Program-made: the position numbers and the translations under genes | Notes under the pieces: generated by a model | The model's database searches: none | Seen by the model: the letters and a program-made list of their open reading frames with translations, nothing else | Told to the model about the DNA's origin: nothing | In this document: positions 3,091-22,661 of the stretch, piece by piece | Position numbering within the stretch: position 1 is the stretch's first letter | How the letters are laid out: each line of letters starts with the position of its first letter | Assembly: GCA_964494885.1 (NCBI GenBank) | Contig: CAZBTH010000002.1 | Coordinates: 29,271-93,270, forward strand | Direction of reading: 5' to 3' | Source of the DNA: an uncultured Gammaproteobacteria bacterium | GTDB lineage: Bacteria > Patescibacteriota > Microgenomatia > UBA8517 | Length of the DNA: 64,000 nt

Positions 3091-4746
3091 ATGAAAAAAA
3101 ATACTAAAAACAAAAAATCAAAAATAGTAATAAACCCCGAAATTACCCTTTCTGTCAATAAAAATTTACTATTATGGACTCTTGGTTTTTTTGAGAAAAA
3201 GCTATTTTTTATTGTTTCCTTAATTTTGACTTCAGTTTCTGTTTATTTCTTTGTTTATTACTTAAACAACAAACTTGGACTTAGCTATAACGATGCCAGA
3301 AGTCATTTGGACATTGGCCGGCGCGTTGTAGAGGGACTAAAACCGGGACTTGCCCAGTTGGGAAGTGTTTGGCTGCCGTTAAACCACATATTAATGATCC
3401 CATTAGTTTGGAGTGACTGGGCTTGGCATTCTGGTTTTGCCGGAGCATTTTGGAACATGATCAGTTTTGTAGGCACGGGTCTTGTTATTTACAAAATTCT
3501 GGAAAAACTTAGAGTTGGTTACTTAGGCCGAATAATGGGCGTAATCGTCTTTGCGGCAAACTTAAATATTCTATATTTGCAGTCCACCGCCATGACCGAA
3601 CCAATTCTTTTGGCAACAATGACCGCGGGTTGTTATTACCTTATTCTTTGGGCGGAGAACGACAACATTCTGAATCTTATTAAGGCCTCTTTTTGGGTTA
3701 TGCTTTCGACATTGGTTCGATACGACGGCTGGTTTTTGCTTTTGTTCGCCGCGGCAATTGTGGGAATTACTACTTGGGTCAAAAGGGGATACCGCGTAGC
3801 GGAAGGCCTTTCTGTTTTATTCCTGACAATGGGCGCTTTGGGAATAGTTCTTTGGTTTGGATGGAACGCCGCTATTTTTAAAGATCCTTTATATTTCGCT
3901 CTTGGTCCATTTTCCGCCCATGCCCAACAGCAACAAATGCTTGAGGCAGGAAGCTTACCCACAAAATGGAACATGCTTCTTTCGACTCAACTTTATTTCT
4001 ATTCAATCCTTTATAACTGCATCGCCTTTGTCGCTATTTTAGGATTTTTGGGAGGGATATTTCTTTGGCTGGACAAGAAAATCAAAGGAGCCGTTCGGTT
4101 CGCCACGGTCTCACTTATGGCCCCATTGGTATTTAACATTTTGTCCCTGTTTTTGGGCTTTTCCGTGCTGTTCGTTCAGGGAATATCGGGTAACACCTGG
4201 TTTAACATTCGCTACGGAATCATGATGATGCCAGCATTTGCCGTATTTATTGGGTACCTGGTCGGGAAACTTAAAGATTTAAGGTGGGTGATAATCGGAC
4301 TATATATATTTGTTATGTTCTTTGCCTTTGCCAACGGCGATGCGGTTACGATTGATGACGCGAGAGTGGGAAGTTCTCAGAAAAATGTCAGCGAAGTTGC
4401 AGGGTTTCTTTATAAATCGGCAAAGGATCAAAAAGGATACATTCTTATTTCAGCAGCCTCTCACGACGCTATTATATTTTCGTCCAATCTTCCTATGGCT
4501 CGTTTCATTCACGAAGGAACGGGTGGTTATTGGGAATCGGCAACGCTACAACCCGACAGATGGGCCCGCTGGATTGTAATGAGAACATATGACAATAACG
4601 ATTTAACTTATAAATTTGTGAGTAAAACCACGGGGTTTGCAAAATATCATTTGGTGGATTCTTATCCATTTGCCGATGTATACGAAATTGACGCGAAGTA
4701 TCTGGATCAACTCAACTACACTCCAATACTCGGAAAGCAGAAATAA
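3091..4746 (+). CDS. GT-C fold glycosyltransferase (PMT_2/ArnT-like, GT39/GT83 family), polytopic membrane protein
   Basis: More than 10 TM helices; YNDARSHLDIGR first-loop motif resembling the D-E/D acidic loop of PMT/ArnT; sits in the same operon as the GT2 genes. Confidence 0.5.
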   Translation: MKKNTKNKKSKIVINPEITLSVNKNLLLWTLGFFEKKLFFIVSLILTSVSVYFFVYYLNNKLGLSYNDARSHLDIGRRVVEGLKPGLAQLGSVWLPLNHILMIPLVWSDWAWHSGFAGAFWNMISFVGTGLVIYKILEKLRVGYLGRIMGVIVFAANLNILYLQSTAMTEPILLATMTAGCYYLILWAENDNILNLIKASFWVMLSTLVRYDGWFLLLFAAAIVGITTWVKRGYRVAEGLSVLFLTMGALGIVLWFGWNAAIFKDPLYFALGPFSAHAQQQQMLEAGSLPTKWNMLLSTQLYFYSILYNCIAFVAILGFLGGIFLWLDKKIKGAVRFATVSLMAPLVFNILSLFLGFSVLFVQGISGNTWFNIRYGIMMMPAFAVFIGYLVGKLKDLRWVIIGLYIFVMFFAFANGDAVTIDDARVGSSQKNVSEVAGFLYKSAKDQKGYILISAASHDAIIFSSNLPMARFIHEGTGGYWESATLQPDRWARWIVMRTYDNNDLTYKFVSKTTGFAKYHLVDSYPFADVYEIDAKYLDQLNYTPILGKQK

Positions 4747-4764
4747 TTAGGTTAGAATATAAAT

Positions 4765-6018
4765 ATGCCGAAGATTAATATTAAAATATTAGTAATTATA
4801 TTCCTAGTAACCGTAATTGGATTTTTTTCTCTTCAGTGGCGTAAAAATACATTGGACTTGGCCAACAAACAGATTTCTTTTTGGCAAATGCAATCAGTCG
4901 ACACCGTCAAATATAGTAGAGACCTTGCCAGACAGTATGAAAAAGACACAAGTTATGATAAAGAGATAGATCTACAAGTTAAATCAATAGCAAGTAGCGG
5001 TGCCAATTTTGTTGCTATAGGTACCCCGTACGATAAAGAATTTGTTCCTTTCTTAAAAAGATGGGTCGATTCTGCCCGTAAATACGGCCTAAATGTTTGG
5101 TTCAGGGGAAACTTTTCGGGTTGGGAGGAATGGTTTGAATACCCGGCAATTACCAGAGCGGAGCATGAGAAAATGCTTAAACAATTTATTTTGGATAACG
5201 GAAGTTTATTCCAAGACGGCGATGTTTTTACTGCCTGCACCGAATGCGAAAACGGAGGACCCGGGGATCCGCGCCAAACAGGTGACGCCTCGGGACACCG
5301 ACAATTTTTAATTAACGAATACCAAATAGGGAGAAATGCTTTTTCCGAGATCGGCAAAAATGTTGCCACAAATTATTTCCCCATGAATGCCGATGTGGCA
5401 AAATTGATAATGAACCCCGAAACAACCAAGGCTCTAGGTGGAATCGTGGTCATAGATCATTACGTACCAACTCCTCAAGACCTGGACCAAGGTGTAACCG
5501 ACTTGGCAGAATCTTCAGGCGGCAAAGTGGTTTTGGGGGAATTCGGTGCTCCTATTCCGGATCTGCACGGAAAATTAACAGAAGCCCAACAAGCCGACTG
5601 GATAAAATCTGCTTTAACACTACTTGCCGATAATAAAAACTTGATCGGGGTAAATTATTGGACAAGCTTTGGCGGTTCGACAGAACTTTGGGACGGGGAC
5701 GGAAATCCGAGACTTGCTGTTTCTGTAATCAAAAATTATTTTGTTCCGAAAGTTATTAGAGGTATTGTAAGCGACGAAATCGGAAGCCCTATAATGGGGG
5801 TCAAAGTATCCGACGGTCTACGCATGGCAAGTACAAATACATTGGGACAATTCTATTTTCCATACATATCAGACAATATCAGTTTGACTGCGTCCGCCGA
5901 AGGATACACTTCCGTTAAAATGAACAACTTGCCAAAAGATAGCCCAATTACAGTTGTTCTTAAAAAACAAAAGGAAGGTTTCTTCTTTAGATTCAGAAAA
6001 TTGCTCCATTCTCTATAG
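4765..6018 (+). CDS. Membrane-anchored glycoside hydrolase-like protein (GH5-like TIM barrel), possibly with a C-terminal carboxypeptidase-regulatory-like beta domain
   Basis: N-terminal TM helix; VVLGEFGAP motif resembling a GH5 nucleophile region; C-terminal IRGIVSDEIGSPIMGVKVSDG. Confidence 0.3.
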   Translation: MPKINIKILVIIFLVTVIGFFSLQWRKNTLDLANKQISFWQMQSVDTVKYSRDLARQYEKDTSYDKEIDLQVKSIASSGANFVAIGTPYDKEFVPFLKRWVDSARKYGLNVWFRGNFSGWEEWFEYPAITRAEHEKMLKQFILDNGSLFQDGDVFTACTECENGGPGDPRQTGDASGHRQFLINEYQIGRNAFSEIGKNVATNYFPMNADVAKLIMNPETTKALGGIVVIDHYVPTPQDLDQGVTDLAESSGGKVVLGEFGAPIPDLHGKLTEAQQADWIKSALTLLADNKNLIGVNYWTSFGGSTELWDGDGNPRLAVSVIKNYFVPKVIRGIVSDEIGSPIMGVKVSDGLRMASTNTLGQFYFPYISDNISLTASAEGYTSVKMNNLPKDSPITVVLKKQKEGFFFRFRKLLHSL

Positions 6019-6064: not shown

Positions 6065-6640
6065 ATGAAGAAAATATTAACCGTTCTATTGTCAGTTTTT
6101 ACTCTTTTGGCCTTCCAACTTGCCTTAATACCTGGGATAGCTTTTGCCGTTAATGACCCCGTTTTCCCTGCCTGTGCCAACCCCCAAGGAACATTGATCG
6201 CCTCATACGACAACGGCGTCCATGGAATTCCCGGCGACACAGGCACCTACAACGGAAGCGATAAGGTGTATAGCGTAACAGGAGATACCCTGATTCAATG
6301 TTTTTGCGCAGTAAATGGGAACGGGATCCAAACAAACTGGTGGAAAGTATCCTCACTTAGCCAAGATCAAATTGACGTTCTTAAATCTGAGGGGTGGACA
6401 TTTGTTCCCAACGGAATCGCCTGGGGGCTTGAAGACAGCGCCTACATGATTAAAAATGCAGGATATTCATGTGGAGGGACGGGTAACGGCGGATCAAACT
6501 CAAACTCCTCATCTGATTCCAATTCTTCAACTGGACAGGTTTTAGGTTTGGCATTCACGGGAAATATTATTTTTGTCTTTGCCTTTTTGGGGTTTGGGAT
6601 CTCTTCTCTTCTTCTCGGTCTTTATCTAAGTAGAAAATGA
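6065..6640 (+). CDS. Secreted surface protein with a C-terminal sortase-type sorting signal (LAFTG, TM segment, SRK tail)
   Basis: Signal peptide; Ser/Asn-rich linker; LAFTG motif followed by a hydrophobic segment and basic tail; immediately upstream of a sortase gene. Confidence 0.5.
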   Translation: MKKILTVLLSVFTLLAFQLALIPGIAFAVNDPVFPACANPQGTLIASYDNGVHGIPGDTGTYNGSDKVYSVTGDTLIQCFCAVNGNGIQTNWWKVSSLSQDQIDVLKSEGWTFVPNGIAWGLEDSAYMIKNAGYSCGGTGNGGSNSNSSSDSNSSTGQVLGLAFTGNIIFVFAFLGFGISSLLLGLYLSRK

Positions 6641-6795: not shown

Positions 6796-7332
6796 ATGAA
6801 AACTACCGGAAAGGTCTTAGTTTTTCTTGGTCTTATATCAACTATTTTCGGATTATATCTGGCTTGGCAGAGAATCAATCCCGAAAGAATCTCCTTTAAT
6901 ACCCCTAAGTTTGACTCGCCCAATTTACAAAAGAAAACTAACTTAACGCCTATCGAAATTAAGATGGGGGAGCAGAGTATTGATTTGCCGATTTACCCTG
7001 CATCTATAAACGGTACGTCCTGGGAAACAACAACTAAAGGCGTCTCCTATTTAAAAAACACGCCGACTCCGGGAGAAATCGGAAATAGTGTCATGTATGG
7101 TCACAACTGGACCAATCTTCTCGGCCCGTTGGTCCGGGCAAAACCCGGGCAAAAAATAGAGATTACATATAGTGATGGAAGTAGAAAAAATTTTGAGATT
7201 ACTTTTACGCAAACCGTCTCCCCCGATCAAACATTTATTCTAAATAACACCAACGACAGAAGAATTACTATTTATACATGCACAGGATTTCTTGATAGTA
7301 AAAGATTTGTGGTCGTAGCAACCCTGATATAA
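6796..7332 (+). CDS. Sortase family transpeptidase
   Basis: GHNW (His), ITIYTCTG (TLxTC-like Cys) and a following Arg; N-terminal TM helix. The track ORF starts at 6637, but the ATG at 6796 is preceded by GGGGG and removes an implausible basic N-terminal extension. Confidence 0.7.
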   Translation: MKTTGKVLVFLGLISTIFGLYLAWQRINPERISFNTPKFDSPNLQKKTNLTPIEIKMGEQSIDLPIYPASINGTSWETTTKGVSYLKNTPTPGEIGNSVMYGHNWTNLLGPLVRAKPGQKIEITYSDGSRKNFEITFTQTVSPDQTFILNNTNDRRITIYTCTGFLDSKRFVVVATLI

Positions 7333-11631: not shown

Positions 11632-12078
11632 TTAAATTTTTTTAATAAATCTTTTAATTTTTCTATCCCTTTCCAAAATTGGCTTTCGATATACTTCACC
11701 AGTTAGGGTCCTCTTTTTCTGTGAGAATATTCCCAATATTTCTTCAATTAAAGCCATACCCAAATCTGAATTAGCTATATTTTCCGCTACTTTTTTTACA
11801 GCCCCATTACCGTATTTTATCTTCAAGCTCATTTTGTTGATAGTATTGGGGGTTACCCGTAAAATATTTGATATATTTTCGTAAATATTTCCTTTTTCTA
11901 AAAGTACGGCAATTGCCAACCTTTTAGCAAGTATTGTTTTTTCGATAGGGGATAAGAAATCATTCAAAAAGTTAATTATTTCTTTTTTATTTCTAAATTT
12001 AATTAGTGTATTTTCCAGAAGATCATAAATTCTTTGATCTACTTCTGGTCTCAATCTTATTTTCGAAACCTGTGTCAT
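11632..12078 (-). CDS. TrpR-like DNA-binding protein, YerC/YecD family
   Basis: LSPIEKTILAKRLAIAVLL...NISNILRVTPNTINKMS matches the TrpR/YerC helix-turn-helix core; a paralog lies at 20398-20844. Confidence 0.65.
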   Translation of the reverse strand: MTQVSKIRLRPEVDQRIYDLLENTLIKFRNKKEIINFLNDFLSPIEKTILAKRLAIAVLLEKGNIYENISNILRVTPNTINKMSLKIKYGNGAVKKVAENIANSDLGMALIEEILGIFSQKKRTLTGEVYRKPILERDRKIKRFIKKI

Positions 12079-13807: not shown

Positions 13808-13815
13808 GGAAGTGA

Positions 13816-13868
13816 AAAGGGAATCTTAATGATTTAAAAAGAATCAAAAGGTTCCCTTATTTTTTTAG
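13816..13868 (+). terminator. Rho-independent terminator candidate after the L,D-transpeptidase gene
   Basis: 11-bp stem AAGGGAATCTT / AAGGTTCCCTT with one G-U pair and a large loop, followed by TTATTTTTTT. Confidence 0.45.
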
Positions 13869-13911
13869 ATGGAAATAGTACTTGATTTTTATATTCCACT
13901 AAGTAAAATGG

Positions 13912-14010
13912 TCTTTATATCAAGAGGCGGCCAGGGACTAGCCCGATGACCCGCCAACAACCTCCTGAATTTAGTTCGGGAAAGGTGCTAAAACTAGAAC
14001 GATATGAAAA
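13912..14010 (+). promoter_or_regulatory. SAM-I (S-box) riboswitch in the metK leader
   Basis: TATCAAGAG-GCGGCCAGGGACTAGCCCGATGACCCGCCAACAACC matches the S-box core (UAUCAAGAG, AGGGACUGGCCCGAUGA, GCAACC) and GGTGCTAAAAC follows; the P1 3' strand GATATGAA includes the metK start codon. Confidence 0.8.
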
Positions 14011-15062
14011 ATATATTTTTAGATACTTTCAAAAATTACACTGTTGAATCCGTAACAAGCGGGCACCCCGATAAAATCTGCGACCAAGTTTCCGATGCTA
14101 TTCTGGATGAGTGTCTCCGTCAAGATCCCAAAAGTAGAGTTGCCATAGAAAGTTTTGGCGCGCACGGACTTTTTGTGATTGGCGGAGAAGTCACGACCAA
14201 TGCTAAGTTTGACGCAAAAAAAATTGCAGCCAGAGTTTACAAAGAAATAGGCCACCTTGATAAACTTAAATTTGTAACAAACATAATTAAACAATCCCCG
14301 GACATTGCCATGGGGGTAGATACAGGCGGGGCAGGGGACCAGGGCATTATGTACGGATTTGCGACTGACGAGACCCCCGAATATTTACCCAAAGCCGTTG
14401 CACTTGTTCACAAACTTACAAAAGGACTGGAAGACCTGAGAAGATCAAAAAAAATTAAATGGCTCCTCCCCGATGGCAAAGCCCAGGTCACAATAGAAAA
14501 TGGAAAAATCAAAACAGTTTTAGTTTCGGCACAACACAAGAAAGGTGTAAAGCTTGAACAAGTCCGCAAAGAAATTTCCGAAAAATTAATTAAAAAGCTT
14601 GTTCCTGGTATTAAAGACAAAAACATTTTGGTTAACCCTACAGGTAAATTTGAAGTCGGAGGGTTTATTGCCGATACGGGCTTAACCGGTAGAAAAATCA
14701 TGGTTGACTCTTACGGCGGTCTTATTCCACACGGCGGTGGAGCGTTTTCCGGAAAAGATCCTACAAAAGTGGACAGGAGTGGCGCCTACATGTGCCGATT
14801 TGTTGCTAAAAATCTGGTTGCAAAAGGCAAAGGCAAAAGTGTTCTGGTATCAGTTGCCTATGCTATCGGTAAAGCCGAACCTTTAATGGTCGATGCCAAA
14901 AACGAAAAGGGTAAAGATCTTTCAGACTACGTTAAAAAACATTTCGACTTTAAGCCCCTGGCAATTATCGAAAAACTAAAACTTAGAAGCCCCATTTATT
15001 CCCAAACCGCCGCCTATGGCCACTTCGGCAAAAAAGGCCTCCCTTGGGAAGAAATTGAATAA
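14004..15062 (+). CDS. metK: S-adenosylmethionine synthetase
   Basis: ESVTSGHPDKICDQVSDAILD N-terminus aligns to MetK; GGGAFSGKDPTKVDRSGAYMCR near the C-terminus. Confidence 0.9.
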   Translation: MKNIFLDTFKNYTVESVTSGHPDKICDQVSDAILDECLRQDPKSRVAIESFGAHGLFVIGGEVTTNAKFDAKKIAARVYKEIGHLDKLKFVTNIIKQSPDIAMGVDTGGAGDQGIMYGFATDETPEYLPKAVALVHKLTKGLEDLRRSKKIKWLLPDGKAQVTIENGKIKTVLVSAQHKKGVKLEQVRKEISEKLIKKLVPGIKDKNILVNPTGKFEVGGFIADTGLTGRKIMVDSYGGLIPHGGGAFSGKDPTKVDRSGAYMCRFVAKNLVAKGKGKSVLVSVAYAIGKAEPLMVDAKNEKGKDLSDYVKKHFDFKPLAIIEKLKLRSPIYSQTAAYGHFGKKGLPWEEIE

Positions 15063-15112
15063 ACTGTCTCACCCTCAAACTTTTAAAGCGATATAATTAA
15101 TATATAACTCCC

Positions 15113-16108
15113 ATGTCAGATTTTGATAAAAATGAGGGATTTTTACAACCAGCCGAACAGTACAAACCGTCTGTCAAATTTATCCAAATAAGACATTCCG
15201 ACAATGATGCGCCAAATGTCTGGTTAGAAGCAAAAAAAAACGATGTTATTTTACTTGAAGTTGGGGATCTAACAATACATGAACGAGAGGCTCGCGAAAC
15301 AGGTGCCAATAGTGTAGCTTCTTTAGAAGATCCTACAGAAAGAAAAAGAAAACTCGGTAATGCCTATTCAGATGGATCTTTCTTATCGCAAATCATGAAG
15401 GGTGCAATACTCGAAGGGAAAGAAATTCACTTTGTCGACATTCCAGAAAACCACGATACTAATAAAACTCAAAATGAGGAATTGAGTTACTTACAAAAAA
15501 GTTATGACTGCTTTTTTGAAGCCGATTTCAAAGGTTCATTATTACATCTCCGCAATTACATACTTGCCGATGGTGAGTCTGGTCAACTTCGAGAAAAAAT
15601 CGTAGTTTCTCAAATTGAAAATTTATTACAAAAAAATCAAACAAAATGGAAGAATAAATCTGTCTGTGTTATCCAGGGTATGAACCATGTTAAAAGTTAT
15701 CATATTTTCAAAAATAGAAACCCAGGGGTATCATCCTCACGTACTTTTTTGAATGGAAAGCGATTCTCTTTCTTACTTGAACACGAGGCACGACAAAGAT
15801 TAAATGCGGGTTCCAAAGAAGATCAAAAGTTATCTATTGAGCGCTTATTCATTTCTCGCCTAATTTTGCCGGCACTTATAACAGATGAAAATATCAATGA
15901 AAAAAATAAAAAAACGGATGAATTGGCCAGGATGATTGGTAGAGATGAAATCAACACTATTTTTAAAAAACTTACCGAAATACGAAGAGATGTGAAATCG
16001 GAACTCCACATGAATAACCCAGAATATATTAAAGCATACATTAATAAACGAGTTGAGCTTCTCGCACAACAAATATTAGAACAGCATCCTCTTTCGCAAA
16101 AAATTTGA
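15113..16108 (+). CDS. Hypothetical protein, paralog A of a tandem pair; possibly distant TraB/GumN/TIKI-like
   Basis: Clear paralogy to 16279-17322 (FIQIRHSD..DVILLEV and KWKNKSVCVIQGMNHVKSYHIF against FVQIEHAPEN..DVVLLEC and KWKNKTICVIQGQNHSRTYHIF); the GxxH motif and N-terminal pattern resemble TraB/TIKI, at low confidence. Confidence 0.5.
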   Translation: MSDFDKNEGFLQPAEQYKPSVKFIQIRHSDNDAPNVWLEAKKNDVILLEVGDLTIHEREARETGANSVASLEDPTERKRKLGNAYSDGSFLSQIMKGAILEGKEIHFVDIPENHDTNKTQNEELSYLQKSYDCFFEADFKGSLLHLRNYILADGESGQLREKIVVSQIENLLQKNQTKWKNKSVCVIQGMNHVKSYHIFKNRNPGVSSSRTFLNGKRFSFLLEHEARQRLNAGSKEDQKLSIERLFISRLILPALITDENINEKNKKTDELARMIGRDEINTIFKKLTEIRRDVKSELHMNNPEYIKAYINKRVELLAQQILEQHPLSQKI

Positions 16109-16185
16109 CCTCTGCTGTGATTGAACGAGCAATGCCGATTGGTAGACGCGTTAATGACCTCAATTAAGTCTAAAAACGTGGTGTC

Positions 16186-16227
16186 CACTTCGGCAAAAAA
16201 GGATTGCCTTGGGAAGAAATTGAGTAA
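16186..16227 (+). pseudogene. Remnant of a metK 3' end (encodes HFGKKGLPWEEIE-stop)
   Basis: 39 coding nt plus stop aligned to 15024-15062 with 4 nt differences, all synonymous; an in-frame TAA lies 4 codons upstream, so it is a fragment only. Confidence 0.6.
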
Positions 16228-16278
16228 CTTTTCCTTCCTCAATGACTATTAAAGAGATACAATAGTTGTGTATATATT

Positions 16279-17322
16279 ATGGAGTTATTTGACAGATTGA
16301 ACATACCATTATTAAAAAGGGCACAGGAATCCAGAGTGAGATTTGTGCAAATTGAACACGCTCCTGAAAACGCAACCAAGATCTGGGAAGAGGCGAGAAA
16401 ATACGACGTTGTTTTACTTGAGTGTACAAACGTTTCGGAAAAACGACGAGTCGATCTTGAAAATACGATAAACAAAGTATCGTCACTAGAAACACGGTCT
16501 CAAAGAGAGAAAGTTCTCGGAACCGTCTTCTCAGGAAAAGAATTTGACAATCAAATAATTAGAAGTTTAATCCTTGAAGGTAAAGAGTTCCATTATATCG
16601 ATGTTTTTGACAATGACGAAGCGAACACACTACGCAGAGAATCAAGGACGCTAAGGAAACTGGAAACTGATTATTTTTGTCAAGGTAAATTTGATCTTTC
16701 GTTTGTCTATTCTAAAAAAGCCACCATCGCTAGAGCCCATAGTGATTTTGCAAGAGAAGAAGTAGTTTCAAAACAAATAGAGGATCTAAGAACCAAATCG
16801 TCGAAAAAATGGAAAAATAAAACTATATGTGTTATACAAGGTCAAAATCACTCTCGAACTTATCATATATTCAAAAGGGATTACCCCTCGGTAGAATCTT
16901 CGAGAACATTTCTTGAAGACGACGTGTTTGTCTTCTCCCTCACAACCGAGGCTAAAAATCGCCTCCTAGCTGGATCACCAGAAAGTCGAGAAATTGCTTT
17001 CAAAAGGTCATTTATTGCACAAAATGTTTTGTTTCCACGGTCGGACAGCGACCAAGATATCGGAGAAAGAATAGAAATATCTGACAAAATTGCCAGAAAT
17101 CTATCTACAACCGAAATTGACGAGATATTTACTAGTCTAACAATGATCCAACAATTTATTCGGGAAAATTTTAGCAATATGCCAGACTTGGCCACATTTT
17201 ATGCTTTAAAACATGCTGAAATTTTAGGTCGACAGATAATCGAAAAACACCCACTTTTTCCCGAAAATTCGACACAAGTAGTATGTCATCCTCCCCGCCA
17301 TTCTGGCTGGGTAGCCGTCTAA
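16279..17322 (+). CDS. Hypothetical protein, paralog B of the tandem pair
   Basis: Collinear similarity to 15113-16108 along most of its length. Confidence 0.5.
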   Translation: MELFDRLNIPLLKRAQESRVRFVQIEHAPENATKIWEEARKYDVVLLECTNVSEKRRVDLENTINKVSSLETRSQREKVLGTVFSGKEFDNQIIRSLILEGKEFHYIDVFDNDEANTLRRESRTLRKLETDYFCQGKFDLSFVYSKKATIARAHSDFAREEVVSKQIEDLRTKSSKKWKNKTICVIQGQNHSRTYHIFKRDYPSVESSRTFLEDDVFVFSLTTEAKNRLLAGSPESREIAFKRSFIAQNVLFPRSDSDQDIGERIEISDKIARNLSTTEIDEIFTSLTMIQQFIRENFSNMPDLATFYALKHAEILGRQIIEKHPLFPENSTQVVCHPPRHSGWVAV

Positions 17323-17401
17323 ACGAGGATGACATATCAGCGTTCAATTCATCCGCGGGCTCATCGCCCTTGGTTTTCTTGAATGCTGTTATAATATATC
17401 C

Positions 17402-19120
17402 ATGCCTGAACAAACCGAAGTACTCGATGCTTACGAAGAAAAGTGGGGTGAATATAGTGAACCTGCCGAGCGCGGCGGGGGAAGAGGCAAACGCCCCAAA
17501 AACGGCCCCACCAAAAGCCAGGAGGCTTCATCTGCGGAAGAGAACGCAAGGCTTGCGCGTGAGCGCCAGGAGTTCGCTGAAAACCAGATCTTGGAATACG
17601 TTGATACCACCTGGAAAAGCTTCAAAGAGGAAGATCGGCCTAAAAAAATCGCTGAATACGCAAGATGGATGGAAAAGGCCGCCAAACAAAGAGAGTTTAA
17701 AATTGACACAAATGAAGTAAGGTTTAAATCTAAATTATCAAGCGGCAACGGTGGTCAAAATGTTCAAAAAAATGAAACCGCCATAGATGCTAAACATATT
17801 CCAACTGGACTTAGATCCGGCTCTCAGGACGAAACTAGCCAGCTACACAACAAACAAGTCGCACTTCAAATATTAACATTGAATATTAAATCTCAACTTA
17901 AACTCTGGAAAGAAACATCAAAAGAATTCAGGAAAAAATTAATGCACCCCGAAGAGTCCGAAAAATTCGAAACCGGTTTTGTGCCACTTCCCGAAGGAGT
18001 AACAATCGACAGCCTCAGGGCGCAAGTGCCGCCATCAGAAGAACTAACCGTTATGTTTGGTTGGGAAGGTGATATCGATGGTAAGCCCAAAAGCGCCACA
18101 GTCGCCGGTGAAAATTTTTATTTATATCCCGCAATAGAATACCGGGTAAATTATAATTCATCCCAAAATGGCGATGTCTACATGAACCCAGTTGACCTAA
18201 AAAGTGGCGCACCGGAAGTTTCCGATATCCCGGCCGCTCTTGATATACATTTGGCATCAGGAAAGGGTAGGCAGACATCATGCATTAATATTTCTGCTAA
18301 AAGTTCGGATGGGAAAATATCAAAAGCTATCGGTAAAATTCAAATGGGAATTGAAAGGTTGCAGGATATTGACAGACTCAAGACTTTTGCCCAAGAATAT
18401 TACCAATCGAATCTTGCGACCGATCTGAAAACAATAAAAGAAGCATTAGACATTACCACTTTTCAAGAAGGGTCCCGTGCAGACCAAATAATATACCGCC
18501 AAGCCTGGCTAATATTCGAAAGTGAGTTTTACATAAGATTAGATGAAAACAGGAATACAGACAATCTAAAGGAACTAATGCAAGACTCCCTGATTCAATA
18601 TATGGAGCAAATTAAAGATATTTTAGAAAACAGACCGACAGAATTAATTAATATAACCGACGACCCAAATAGCATAGTTATACATTTTGACACTATCCCA
18701 ACCGACTTAAGCGACCCGGATCATGGTCTTATTGTACTGACAACTTATATTCCGAACCGCGGTTGGACCGTAATGGCCCCAATTGGTGATTGCCCAAATT
18801 TTGCAGCCTACATGCTCAAGGATTTTGCCACCGGCCCGAACAAAGAAAACCAAGCATCAATATTTGCGTATTCATTTCAAACTGCGAAAGAGAGCGGAGA
18901 ATTGGACATTTTAAACGGCGGTAAAACATTATTGTTTAAAAACTTATCGGACCTTAATCCCTACATGGCCGTTTTTCATAGCGACGACCACACCCTCAAA
19001 ATGGCTTTAGAAACTCTCAGGGTTGCAGGGGATCCGGTTCTCGGAGAGGATACCTTTAATTTTATTATCTATAAAAAGAGCGAGGTTGTTCCTGAAATTT
19101 TATCCTTAGATTTGACATAA
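17402..19120 (+). CDS. Large hypothetical cytoplasmic protein (572 aa) with a charged, low-complexity N-terminus
   Basis: Long uninterrupted ORF with no recognisable motifs; follows the paralog pair. Confidence 0.5.
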   Translation: MPEQTEVLDAYEEKWGEYSEPAERGGGRGKRPKNGPTKSQEASSAEENARLARERQEFAENQILEYVDTTWKSFKEEDRPKKIAEYARWMEKAAKQREFKIDTNEVRFKSKLSSGNGGQNVQKNETAIDAKHIPTGLRSGSQDETSQLHNKQVALQILTLNIKSQLKLWKETSKEFRKKLMHPEESEKFETGFVPLPEGVTIDSLRAQVPPSEELTVMFGWEGDIDGKPKSATVAGENFYLYPAIEYRVNYNSSQNGDVYMNPVDLKSGAPEVSDIPAALDIHLASGKGRQTSCINISAKSSDGKISKAIGKIQMGIERLQDIDRLKTFAQEYYQSNLATDLKTIKEALDITTFQEGSRADQIIYRQAWLIFESEFYIRLDENRNTDNLKELMQDSLIQYMEQIKDILENRPTELINITDDPNSIVIHFDTIPTDLSDPDHGLIVLTTYIPNRGWTVMAPIGDCPNFAAYMLKDFATGPNKENQASIFAYSFQTAKESGELDILNGGKTLLFKNLSDLNPYMAVFHSDDHTLKMALETLRVAGDPVLGEDTFNFIIYKKSEVVPEILSLDLT

Positions 19121-20397: not shown

Positions 20398-20844
20398 CTA
20401 GATTCCCTTCTTAAAACGGCTGATGTTTTTATTTCTTTGAAACACTTTTTTGTGATATTCACTTAAGGGTAAACCTTTTATTGGAATATTGAACATGCTT
20501 TGGATTTCCTCCCAAATTATTCTGGCCGAATCCCGCTTTAAAACATTCCCAACCACTTCATTCGTTCCCTTTTCTCCATACTTTATATGCAAATTCATTT
20601 TGGCAATCGTCGCCGTGGTAACATGCAAGATCCTTTTGATTTCCTCGTAACTGTTTCCTTTTGCCAAAAGTACTGCCAAAGCAAATCGTTTTGCCAACAT
20701 TATTTTTTCGGTAGGGGATAAGAAGTCATTTAGAAATATATCAAATTTCTCTTTGTTTTTGATTGAAAGAAGCGATTCACTAAAGAGGTTGAATATCCTA
20801 TCCCAAACTTCCGGTCTTAATTTAAACCTCGAAACCATTGTCAT
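20398..20844 (-). CDS. TrpR-like DNA-binding protein, YerC/YecD family (paralog 2)
   Basis: LSPTEKIMLAKRFALAVLLAKGNSYEEIKRILHVTTATIAKMN; same length and collinear with 11632-12078. Confidence 0.65.
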   Translation of the reverse strand: MTMVSRFKLRPEVWDRIFNLFSESLLSIKNKEKFDIFLNDFLSPTEKIMLAKRFALAVLLAKGNSYEEIKRILHVTTATIAKMNLHIKYGEKGTNEVVGNVLKRDSARIIWEEIQSMFNIPIKGLPLSEYHKKVFQRNKNISRFKKGI

Positions 20845-21004: not shown

Positions 21005-21649
21005 TCAAATATCAACCAATGGTTCCTTACTGTCTTTTACAAAGGCTTCATCGATTCTTTGCATTCCAATAAGATCCGGTTTAACCCTGATTAAATCTCC
21101 TCGTATAATACGATCTAAATATTTTTCTTTCAATGTTTCACTAAAAAGTTCAAATTCGCTATGGGGATCTGGATCACTCGGCTTAGGTTTAACAAAATGT
21201 CCAAATACATGCTCCCCATCTATTGTTGCATGAATGATGGGGTGTGCTGTGTTTGTTAGTTTATAAACAATCTCGACATCAGTAAACAACTCTGCACACG
21301 CAACGGCAAATAAAAAGGATGGTAACTTACAATCACGCCGCTCGGAATTATCAAGCTCCCGTACCTGCCCTCCTATTGTATTACATCCAGAGCGACGATC
21401 TTTAAACTGATAGTCAATTCCAACTTCTCGTCCTAGGTTCTCAAAAGTTTGTTTTTTGTAGTCTTCTGCAATATAACTTTTCGCATAAGCATGGGCGATG
21501 CCTTGCGCCTTAGAAAAATCTTCCACGGTACTTATTGGTAGCTCTCGAGGAATCCCAACCTTGTCTCTAGAATGTAGTCTGCGCACTCTTGTATATCCTC
21601 CATATTCCGTTCCCTCTTCAGCCCCCATGTTACTTTTCTCCTCTCCCAT
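21005..21649 (-). CDS. Hypothetical protein overlapping the recombinase gene by 20 bp and probably co-transcribed with it
   Basis: 214-aa ORF with no recognisable motifs. Confidence 0.45.
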   Translation of the reverse strand: MGEEKSNMGAEEGTEYGGYTRVRRLHSRDKVGIPRELPISTVEDFSKAQGIAHAYAKSYIAEDYKKQTFENLGREVGIDYQFKDRRSGCNTIGGQVRELDNSERRDCKLPSFLFAVACAELFTDVEIVYKLTNTAHPIIHATIDGEHVFGHFVKPKPSDPDPHSEFELFSETLKEKYLDRIIRGDLIRVKPDLIGMQRIDEAFVKDSKEPLVDI

Positions 21650-22661
21650 GGAATTGTTCGTGAATATCTCTTAATTGTTTATTGGTCACATGTGTATAAA
21701 TCTGAGTTGTAGAAATATTTTTGTGTCCCAACATCTCTTGTACCGAACGAATATCCGCCCCGGCGTTTAATAAATCAGTTGCGAAACTGTGTCTCATGAC
21801 ATGAGGCGTGACTTCCATCGGCATTTTCATTTTATGAGAATACTTTTTTATCATTCTCTGGACCGAGCGGGGAGTGAGTCTCATTTTTTCATCCGGCGTG
21901 GCCGGATCAGACTTCCCTTTGTGATGAATGAAAAGGGGTTTGTAGTGATCGCGCCTTTCATTTAAATATTTAATTAACCAATCAGTTGCACGGCTGGAAA
22001 GAAACACTACCCGAGCCTTTCCACCTTTTCCCACAATCCCGAATTCTTTTGTATCAAGGTTTACTTTGTCACGGTCAAGTTTGGTAAGTTCCGAAACACG
22101 AAGGCCTGTAGAAAATAAAACTTCCAAAATCGCTTTGTCCCGCTTACCCTGAATAGAATCTTGTGAGGGAGCATTCAGCATTCTGTCGACTTGCTCACCA
22201 CTTAAAAATTTTACCTGCCGTTCTTCCACCTTAGGCAAATCAATTTTATCCGGAGCCATAGCCTGAAAATCATTCCTAATAAGCCATTTAAGAAAACTTC
22301 TAAGAGCAATAACATGATAACTCTGAGTGCGGCGTCCCATTAGGTGACCATTTTCCCCAGGCAGGGTTGTTAAAAAAACTCTAAAACTCCTTACAATGTC
22401 CTGATTGATATCAATTATGTTTTCCCGGATTCCCTGAGATTCCATCCATAAAATAAGTCTGGATAAATAATGTCTGTAATTCCGAAGGGTTAGGGGAGAG
22501 GCGCCACGTTCTACCTGGAGATATTCCAAAAAGTCTTCAACCTTCTGAGCAATCTCTGAATTGTTAATTTGAGCAGACTGACTGTTTGCGAAACCCCTAC
22601 GAAGCCTTGGCGTAGTAGGGTTTGCAATTTCGCTTTGATTGATCGGTGCATTATCAACCAT
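21630..22661 (-). CDS. Tyrosine site-specific recombinase (XerC/XerD-like / phage integrase family) with a roughly 40-aa N-terminal extension
   Basis: EDFLEYLQVERGASPLTLRNYRHYL N-terminal SAM-like domain; catalytic R...HVMRHSFAT...LGHKNISTTQIYTHV (R-H-R-Y). Confidence 0.85.
   Translation of the reverse strand: MVDNAPINQSEIANPTTPRLRRGFANSQSAQINNSEIAQKVEDFLEYLQVERGASPLTLRNYRHYLSRLILWMESQGIRENIIDINQDIVRSFRVFLTTLPGENGHLMGRRTQSYHVIALRSFLKWLIRNDFQAMAPDKIDLPKVEERQVKFLSGEQVDRMLNAPSQDSIQGKRDKAILEVLFSTGLRVSELTKLDRDKVNLDTKEFGIVGKGGKARVVFLSSRATDWLIKYLNERRDHYKPLFIHHKGKSDPATPDEKMRLTPRSVQRMIKKYSHKMKMPMEVTPHVMRHSFATDLLNAGADIRSVQEMLGHKNISTTQIYTHVTNKQLRDIHEQFHGRGEK

Follow-up and report, generated by a model that had tools for sequence, protein, structure and literature searches.

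The window, a 64,000-nt stretch of DNA (contig CAZBTH010000002.1, positions 29,271 to 93,270), comes from a member of Candidatus Woesebacteria, in the candidate phyla radiation (CPR). In it an intact metK gene is followed by a cassette gene (A), a 42-nt remnant of a metK 3' end and a divergent cassette gene of the same family (B). We conclude that this array of metK, A, metK tail and B probably arose when two diverged versions of one locus recombined. The evidence comes from the remnant, whose differences from the resident metK tail are all silent and private to it, and from the cassette genes, which are not sisters. Recombination between CPR lineages is hard to document, as the organisms are uncultured and represented by metagenomes only. 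All-silent private changes in a gene tail would provide an internal record of a second functional metK locus that was joined into the genome. As a recombination footprint this belongs to a known type; what deserves follow-up is the locus and the protein family. Coordinates are window positions on the + strand unless stated otherwise.

The remnant encodes the exact MetK C-terminus

The resident metK (14004-15062; 352 amino acids) encodes three Pfam S-AdoMet synthetase domains and matches TIGR01034 with 421 bits. Repeat comparison identified its last 13 codons and stop (15021-15062) as copy 1 of a direct repeat, of which copy 2 is the metK 3' remnant (16186-16227). The remnant reads CAC TTC GGC AAA AAA GGA TTG CCT TGG GAA GAA ATT GAG TAA and translates to HFGKKGLPWEEIE followed by a stop, which is the exact C-terminus of MetK (13/13 residues and the stop identical). 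The two copies match at 38 of 42 bases (90%), and the four differences, GGC>GGA, CTC>TTG (two changes) and GAA>GAG, are all silent. The remnant-tail string is GGCAAAAAAGGATTGCCTTGGGAAGAAATTGAGTAA, and genuine metK sequence ahead of such a tail reads ...GCCGCCTATGGCCAC. No similarity to metK was found upstream of ~16182, and in-frame TAA codons are present at 16165-16167 and 16171-16173. With these stops and no metK sequence upstream, the remnant cannot belong to a full-length gene. The abrupt end of homology at ~16182 indicates a breakpoint rather than a gradient of decay.

These results bear out the first-pass annotation of the locus, which had described, from the letters alone, a 42-nt fragment ending in the MetK C-terminus and stop, with four synonymous-only differences and an in-frame TAA just upstream. 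That annotation had named non-synonymous and indel decay just outside the 42 nt as the observation that would speak against it. Such decay was not seen, and the homology ends sharply at ~16182-16186.

No direct repeat in the region is longer than that formed by the remnant and the resident tail (46 nt at 89% identity, with a spacing of 1165 nt). Their longest identical runs are 17 nt, and each of these 17-mer halves occurs exactly twice in the window; searches with the 17-mers revealed no third copy of the repeat site there. The repeated unit comprises tail, spacer and gene, which are collinear in both copies. A compensatory hairpin, GGCC...GGCC against TCC...GGA, across the start of the remnant was dropped as too short to evaluate.

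The arrangement is not peculiar to one assembly. Two look-ups retrieved 11 contigs in which positions 13900-17450 are 100% identical to the window. Their sources are groundwater metagenomes, represented by six sequencing runs or assemblies (two ENA k127 assemblies, one NODE-style ENA assembly, JGI and Logan) for which several assemblers were used, and several of the contigs cross the junction. Exact matches of the window MetK occurred in this same arrangement only. A chimeric join of two strains' loci, or a mis-resolved repeat, might be expected from a metagenome source with co-occurring relatives, and some Logan contigs do break within the region, at 15677 and at 17344-17345. Against such an artefact stand the 3.5 kb of identical sequence recovered by several assemblers with the junction spanned, the lack of any shared sequence at the junction that could mislead a de Bruijn graph, and the length of the repeat, which at 42 nt is shorter than the k of the MEGAHIT assemblies. 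An assembly artefact is therefore extremely improbable, and the specific worry raised in the annotation, a collapsed repeat, is argued against by the 11 identical contigs from several assemblers.

The four changes arose on the remnant's own branch

We compared nine tails codon by codon: the resident tail, those of the close relatives W442, GWA2_40_7, P0110 and P0115, those of three more distant relatives, and the remnant. GGA at codon 6, TTG at codon 7 and GAG at codon 13 occur in the remnant only, placing the four substitutions on its own branch. A neutral simulation was performed under four mutation models, starting from the resident sequence. Four random substitutions preserved the peptide and the stop in 0.07-0.27% of simulations (P = 0.0007-0.003); 23 of the 126 possible single changes in the tail (18%) are silent. 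The distances counted from the codon table were four between remnant and resident, seven between remnant and W442, and five between resident and W442. The remnant is thus not intermediate between the resident and W442 tails, and so is not a frozen ancestor.

Collectively, these results give good support to the conclusion that the remnant diverged inside a functional metK, under selection to encode MetK. The first-pass annotation had drawn the same inference, and had called for a dN/dS estimate. The proportion of synonymous differences (pS) is ~0.44, and none of the ~32 non-synonymous sites has changed relative to the resident tail, suggesting that the remnant has been non-coding only briefly since its truncation.

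A tandem duplication in situ would have to assume that gene conversion, or selection for an element acting as DNA or RNA, kept the remnant metK-like, and that the silent pattern is due to chance or to changes on the resident side. The collinear duplicated unit, with its spacing of 1165 nt, and the position of the remnant just upstream of the putative promoter of B are compatible with this. The changes, however, lie on the branch of the remnant and not on that of the resident, the remnant is not intermediate in its distances, and the probability of an all-silent outcome is at most 0.003. The 17-nt identical runs are also short for conversion, and the tail is 90% identical between copies, compared to ~62% for the adjacent promoter-bearing spacer. 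As the two cassette genes are not sisters either (see below), we regard this explanation as largely refuted and its probability as very low.

The two cassette genes are not sisters

The closest genome is that of Ca. Woesebacteria CP066686.1 (W442, locus L008), which has a chromosome of 1.08 Mb and is syntenic with the window. Its gene order is metK, one cassette gene (C), the RF-1-domain gene and a cupin gene. Amino-acid identities to the window are 82% for the YkuD protein, 98% for MetK, 82-83% for the RF-1-domain protein and 90% for the cupin; the SIMPL protein shows 78% in a codon-aligned full-length comparison and 76% by tblastn. The metK genes are 87.9% identical at the nucleotide level (pS 0.50; proportion of non-synonymous differences, pN, 0.012).

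Cassette gene A (15113-16108; 331 amino acids) is the positional and phylogenetic counterpart of the single cassette of W442. Cassette gene B (16279-17322; 347 amino acids) is a divergent member of the family. Aligned with each other, as the annotation had proposed, A and B share 38% amino-acid identity (E 7e-76) and 52% nucleotide identity, in keeping with its description of two related yet highly diverged genes, and at synonymous sites they have reached saturation (pS 0.74). A neighbour-joining tree was computed from 15 family members with 300 bootstraps; in it A and C are sisters with 98% support, while A and B group in 0.3% of replicates. B falls outside A and C, either beside them (42%) or with the P0104/P0003/P0005 group (47%); it is 45% identical to C and 43-46% identical to P0104 and P0005. 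The split between A and B is thus older than that between the window and W442, whereas the metK tail in front of B is diverged only to the level of W442. Duplication in place followed by decay cannot explain this combination. The annotation's rejection of a simple in-situ tandem duplication is therefore upheld. W442 and other relatives have a single cassette or lack it.

The sequence in front of B belongs with the remnant. Positions 16185-16268 align without gaps to the metK tail and spacer of W442 (82% over 84 nt), showing that the remnant and its spacer are a contiguous piece of a metK-cassette locus. The spacer before B (16228-16278; 51 nt) is homologous to the spacer 3' of metK in W442. 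The spacer before A (15063-15112; 50 nt) carries a promoter-like core, TTAAAGCGATATAAT, recognised by conservation. The spacers before A and B are ~62% identical, and the core TTAAAG-N-GATA-Y-AAT is common to the A, B and W442 spacers, where it is a candidate promoter. A scan for consensus promoters and terminators gave background level only, so that the promoter-like core is recognised by conservation alone. By hand counts from the alignment, the spacer before B is ~75% and the spacer before A ~63% identical to that of W442. Between A and the remnant lies a non-coding spacer of 77 nt (16109-16185), which has no metK similarity and ends at the junction, ~16182-16186.

Between genomes whose flanking genes are 78-98% identical, the cassettes are only 37-48% identical in amino-acid sequence. 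The fraction of identical codons at conserved residues is 0.53 for A-C and B-C, compared to 0.66-0.72 in the flanks and a saturated baseline of 0.45. The cassettes are thus either older than the flanks or exchanged between lineages. A retains the near-invariant residues of the family, and the first ~20 nt of its coding sequence are nearly identical to those of the W442 cassette. The last ~28 nt of B are ~93% identical to the W442 cassette by hand count; A ends differently. We considered whether C is itself a recombinant of A and B and rejected this, since a leaning towards A is confined to the first ~90 nt and one towards B to the last ~80 nt, the body being equidistant.

Proposed recombination between two versions of the locus

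We propose that each version of the locus consisted of metK, a short promoter-bearing spacer and a fast-diverging cassette gene, and that the two versions most probably came from two related Woesebacteria lineages in a shared aquifer. The junction at ~16182-16186 would be illegitimate, with DNA 3' of A joined to a second, functional metK 42 nt ahead of its stop. For the opposite end, conserved sequence is the probable site: the final ~80 nt of the cassette together with the RF-1-domain gene, or metK, should the A unit be the incoming one. In their identity to W442, both the final ~80 nt of B and the RF-1-domain gene are at the level of the flanks, and the donor sequence is needed to place the crossover.

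Because the junction is without homology, homologous recombination alone is insufficient, and an illegitimate join or circularisation is needed. The annotation had attributed the array to homologous recombination; the left junction (~16182-16186), having no homology, could not be made in that way alone. The arrangement would fit homology-facilitated illegitimate recombination, or a single crossover with a circularised fragment. With a circularised fragment, A would have the resident body and the donor 3' end, and B the donor body and the resident 3' end. We infer from the footprint that the second locus lay in another genome, and likewise how the ends were joined and which unit moved; the specific mechanism, direction and foreign source proposed here are probable.

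The source of the second metK can be narrowed down. The divergence of the remnant from the resident tail (9.5%, 4/42) matches that of the whole metK of the window from W442 (12.1%), in pS as well as overall. MetK proteins ending in EEIE-stop, as encoded by the remnant too, are otherwise found only in the window and W442 among the members of the MetK cluster, the other members ending in EEIEK, EVIEK or EKIEK. The matching divergence and the shared ending suggest that the second metK came from in or near the subclade of the window and W442.

Several observations weigh against recombination between lineages. With ~7 synonymous sites in the remnant, the depth of its divergence is poorly constrained. 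No mosaic breakpoint is visible within metK. No donor with a close ortholog of B was found among 5.8 billion and 1.84 billion proteins, the best match being at most 47%, so that the foreign origin rests on inference. The signals as to which unit is the newcomer also conflict: in the tree and in its 5' end A goes with the W442 cassette, while the spacer and 3' end of B are nearer to W442.

Two suggestions of the first-pass annotation are not established by this comparison. It had taken B as the acquired unit. Insertion of a foreign metK 3' end plus A, 42 nt before the resident stop, would look the same, and the tail, spacer and 3' end of B are the most W442-like. It had also suggested looking for a lineage in which the metK stop is directly followed by an ortholog of B; no donor lineage with a close ortholog was found among the 5.8 or the 1.84 billion proteins. 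A single family member directly follows metK in W442 and in two further loci (L009 and L107), and none of these is a close ortholog of B (best 47%).

The silent-only divergence and the young breakpoint would be explained equally well by an old duplication of metK and cassette within the genome, with both metK genes functional for a long time and a recent deletion that left 42 nt, without any foreign DNA. A deletion between A-type and B-type genes in the W442 lineage would moreover leave a cassette whose body resembles A and whose 3' end resembles B, as is seen in W442. This account requires more events. The duplication must predate the split between the window and W442, since B lies outside A and C, and a redundant metK must have been kept for long in a genome of ~1 Mb, lost precisely in W442 and deleted late here. 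Two metK copies, or a comparably clean remnant, were found in none of the eight lineages examined and in none of 80 more distant loci among the matches listed. We consider an in-genome origin unlikely.

If a small mobile element had integrated site-specifically into the metK 3' end, it would occupy 15063-16181, with A as its cargo. Such an element supplies a copy of the gene's last codons, changed at silent positions only since the protein has to be restored, and pushes the original tail to its far side. Direct repeats of a gene 3' end, mostly silent differences between them and a sharp end of homology are the signature of such events, as known from e14 and icd (PMC6379469), and the two exact 17-nt blocks could be a core site. 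A tyrosine recombinase gene lies at ~21630-22661 (- strand), ~4.3 kb downstream of B and convergent with it. Both metK tails are, however, followed by homologous spacers with the same promoter-like core and by homologous genes, unlike the boundaries of a chromosome and an element. Only gene A, and no recombinase, is present between the repeats, and the window has no third copy of the site. The downstream recombinase gene is syntenic in all relatives, including those without cassettes, and is probably a housekeeping Xer-type gene rather than part of a mobile element. A further locus with two cassettes (L106) has no metK-tail remnant in a six-frame motif scan, or at its junctions where these were read. 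Integration of this kind is distinctly less likely than either a recombinational or an in-genome origin. An integron-type cassette array was rejected on similar grounds: the recombinase gene is ~4.3 kb away, convergent and syntenic in cassette-less relatives, no third repeat copy exists, and the two-cassette locus L106 lacks a metK-tail remnant.

Relation to known recombination systems

Homology-facilitated illegitimate recombination was reportedly described by de Vries & Wackernagel in 2002 (cited in PMC8116780) during uptake of related DNA. The array in the window resembles it in that one end of the incoming segment would lie within conserved sequence, with a homology-free join at the other, and in that foreign DNA would have been placed next to a conserved anchor, a donor gene being cut short at the illegitimate joint; for the window, the case is made from the footprint only.

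In E. coli, prophage e14 (and phage 21) integrates into the icd 3' end and leaves a displaced pseudo-icd 3' fragment (PMC6379469). As in the window, a duplicated gene 3' end flanks the insert, the differences are mainly silent and the homology ends sharply upstream. In copies of the e14/icd type the differences are mainly silent because both copies had to encode a working C-terminus. The window differs in having no recombinase or element genes between the repeats and homologous DNA after both copies.

A variable interval between metK and the cupin gene

O-antigen, capsule and pilin loci are variable gene islets of the replacement type between conserved flanks. The interval between metK and the cupin gene resembles them in its conserved flanks and in a shared gene that is 37-48% identical, with older synonymous divergence than the flanks. 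It differs in that the islet is tiny (0-3 genes) and does not encode surface polysaccharide, carrying instead a ChaN/EreA/TraB-like protein.

We compared the metK contexts of the 18 members of the MetK 90% cluster. Gene content between metK and cupin varies across the eight lineages examined, so that conserved flanks (98% for metK and 90% for cupin in W442) bracket a segment of 0-3 genes. The interval is empty in GW2011_GWA2_40_7-type genomes, holds an MFS transporter gene on the opposite strand in two lineages and has one cassette directly after metK in L009 and L107. L106 has two cassettes with a short RF-1 gene between them. A metagenome scan anchored on the MetK C-terminus recovered more distant metK loci (71-84% identity), and none of the 80 among the matches listed carried a cassette. 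Together, these observations and the remnant point to a very small hypervariable islet downstream of metK.

A more far-reaching, and in our view doubtful, idea is that the metK-to-cupin interval is a diversity-generating spot, at which divergent alleles of ChaN/EreA/TraB-like hydrolases are exchanged and occasionally stacked, and that the pair formed with the RF-1 gene is a conflict or ribosome-related system under diversifying selection. If this were true, the metK-tail remnant would provide the first direct trace, in a CPR genome, of cassettes moving between lineages.

A protein with an RF-1/peptidyl-tRNA-hydrolase (GGQ) domain is encoded after the cassette in four lineages. In the window this gene (17402-19120; 572 amino acids; Pfam PF00472, 58.8 bits) forms the right conserved flank. 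The protein has 572-578 amino acids in the window and W442, compared to 185-186 in L106 (positions 2335-2895 of that locus) and L107 (7016-7573). The recurrent association suggests that the cassette protein and the RF-1-domain protein form a functional pair.

In the GW2011_GWA2_40_7-type locus (L098) the cupin gene directly follows metK after a spacer of 135 nt (7063-7197 of that locus). A weak, stop-interrupted resemblance to residues 154-190 of the RF-1-domain protein (35% over 37 amino acids) is seen in this spacer, an indication that these genomes have lost both cassette and RF-1 gene by deletion.

Two cassettes in the relatives are frameshifted. In the W442 cassette the frame is broken by a single additional A inside an A9 run (L008 ~6497-6505), and the second cassette of L106 is frameshifted a few bases past an A7 run (L106 ~2940-2960). 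These could be pseudogenes, cases of phase variation or assembly errors.

A degenerate stretch resembling the MetK C-terminus, KISPPLYSLHAGRPHFGNKQFFPWENF followed by a stop, was observed at 4703-4783 of locus L110, 1.2 kb upstream of metK, where a gene is called on the other strand. An older metK-tail remnant is one possible reading, chance another.

The interval on the other side of metK, between the YkuD-LysM gene and metK, is variable as well. In the window it is empty (13808-14003), but L008 (3665-4703), L108 (1580-3342) and L110 (4103-5837) have two to four small genes there, most of them in reverse orientation.

The cassette protein family

No Pfam or NCBIfam model matched the cassette protein. 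At E <= 5, PF01963 was matched by one of 24 family members (E 0.13), so that an assignment to the Tiki/TraB/PrgY/GumN/ChaN/erythromycin-esterase superfamily fails at the level of sequence families. The core fold is nonetheless shared with the ChaN/erythromycin-esterase/TraB superfamily: ~158 of 347 residues align with the superfamily fold, and the C-terminal half is an additional helical part. The AlphaFold model of B has a predicted local distance difference test (pLDDT) score of 89, with residues 330-347 disordered, and a Foldseek search of the cassette protein against the PDB gave no match. Near-invariant residues of the family are H27, E48, R159, Q187, G188 and H191.

The family was recovered by a full HMMER scan; word-index searches that started from B, from A or from a 24-sequence profile had returned almost only the queries. 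A four-sequence search for related loci found one genome locus. The family comprises about a hundred representatives, often beside an RF-1-domain protein.

The 3' end of B and neighbouring features

The 3' end of B (17205-17285) matches that of the W442 cassette at flank-level identity (70-90% in 40-nt windows). It is followed by a segment of ~115 nt (17286-17401) that is missing in W442, contains an 11-bp inverted repeat and encodes the extra C-terminal residues of B. The segment turns the W442-type stop into a read-through, which adds 12 disordered residues to B. The inverted repeat is perfect (17283-17293/17325-17335), and the segment has no other copy in the window. Three Logan contigs end inside it, at 17344-17345. 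Neither the spacer sequence at 16100-16185 nor the insert at 17283-17405 had a match in any fetched locus.

Genes of the Trp-repressor family bracket the region at 11632-12078 and ~20398-20838, both on the - strand; the coordinates of the latter, like those of the tyrosine recombinase gene, were derived by offset from gene calls. Directly upstream of metK, and overlapping its start codon region, is a SAM-I riboswitch (13914-14008; Rfam RF00162, 57.5 bits against a gathering score of 44.4).

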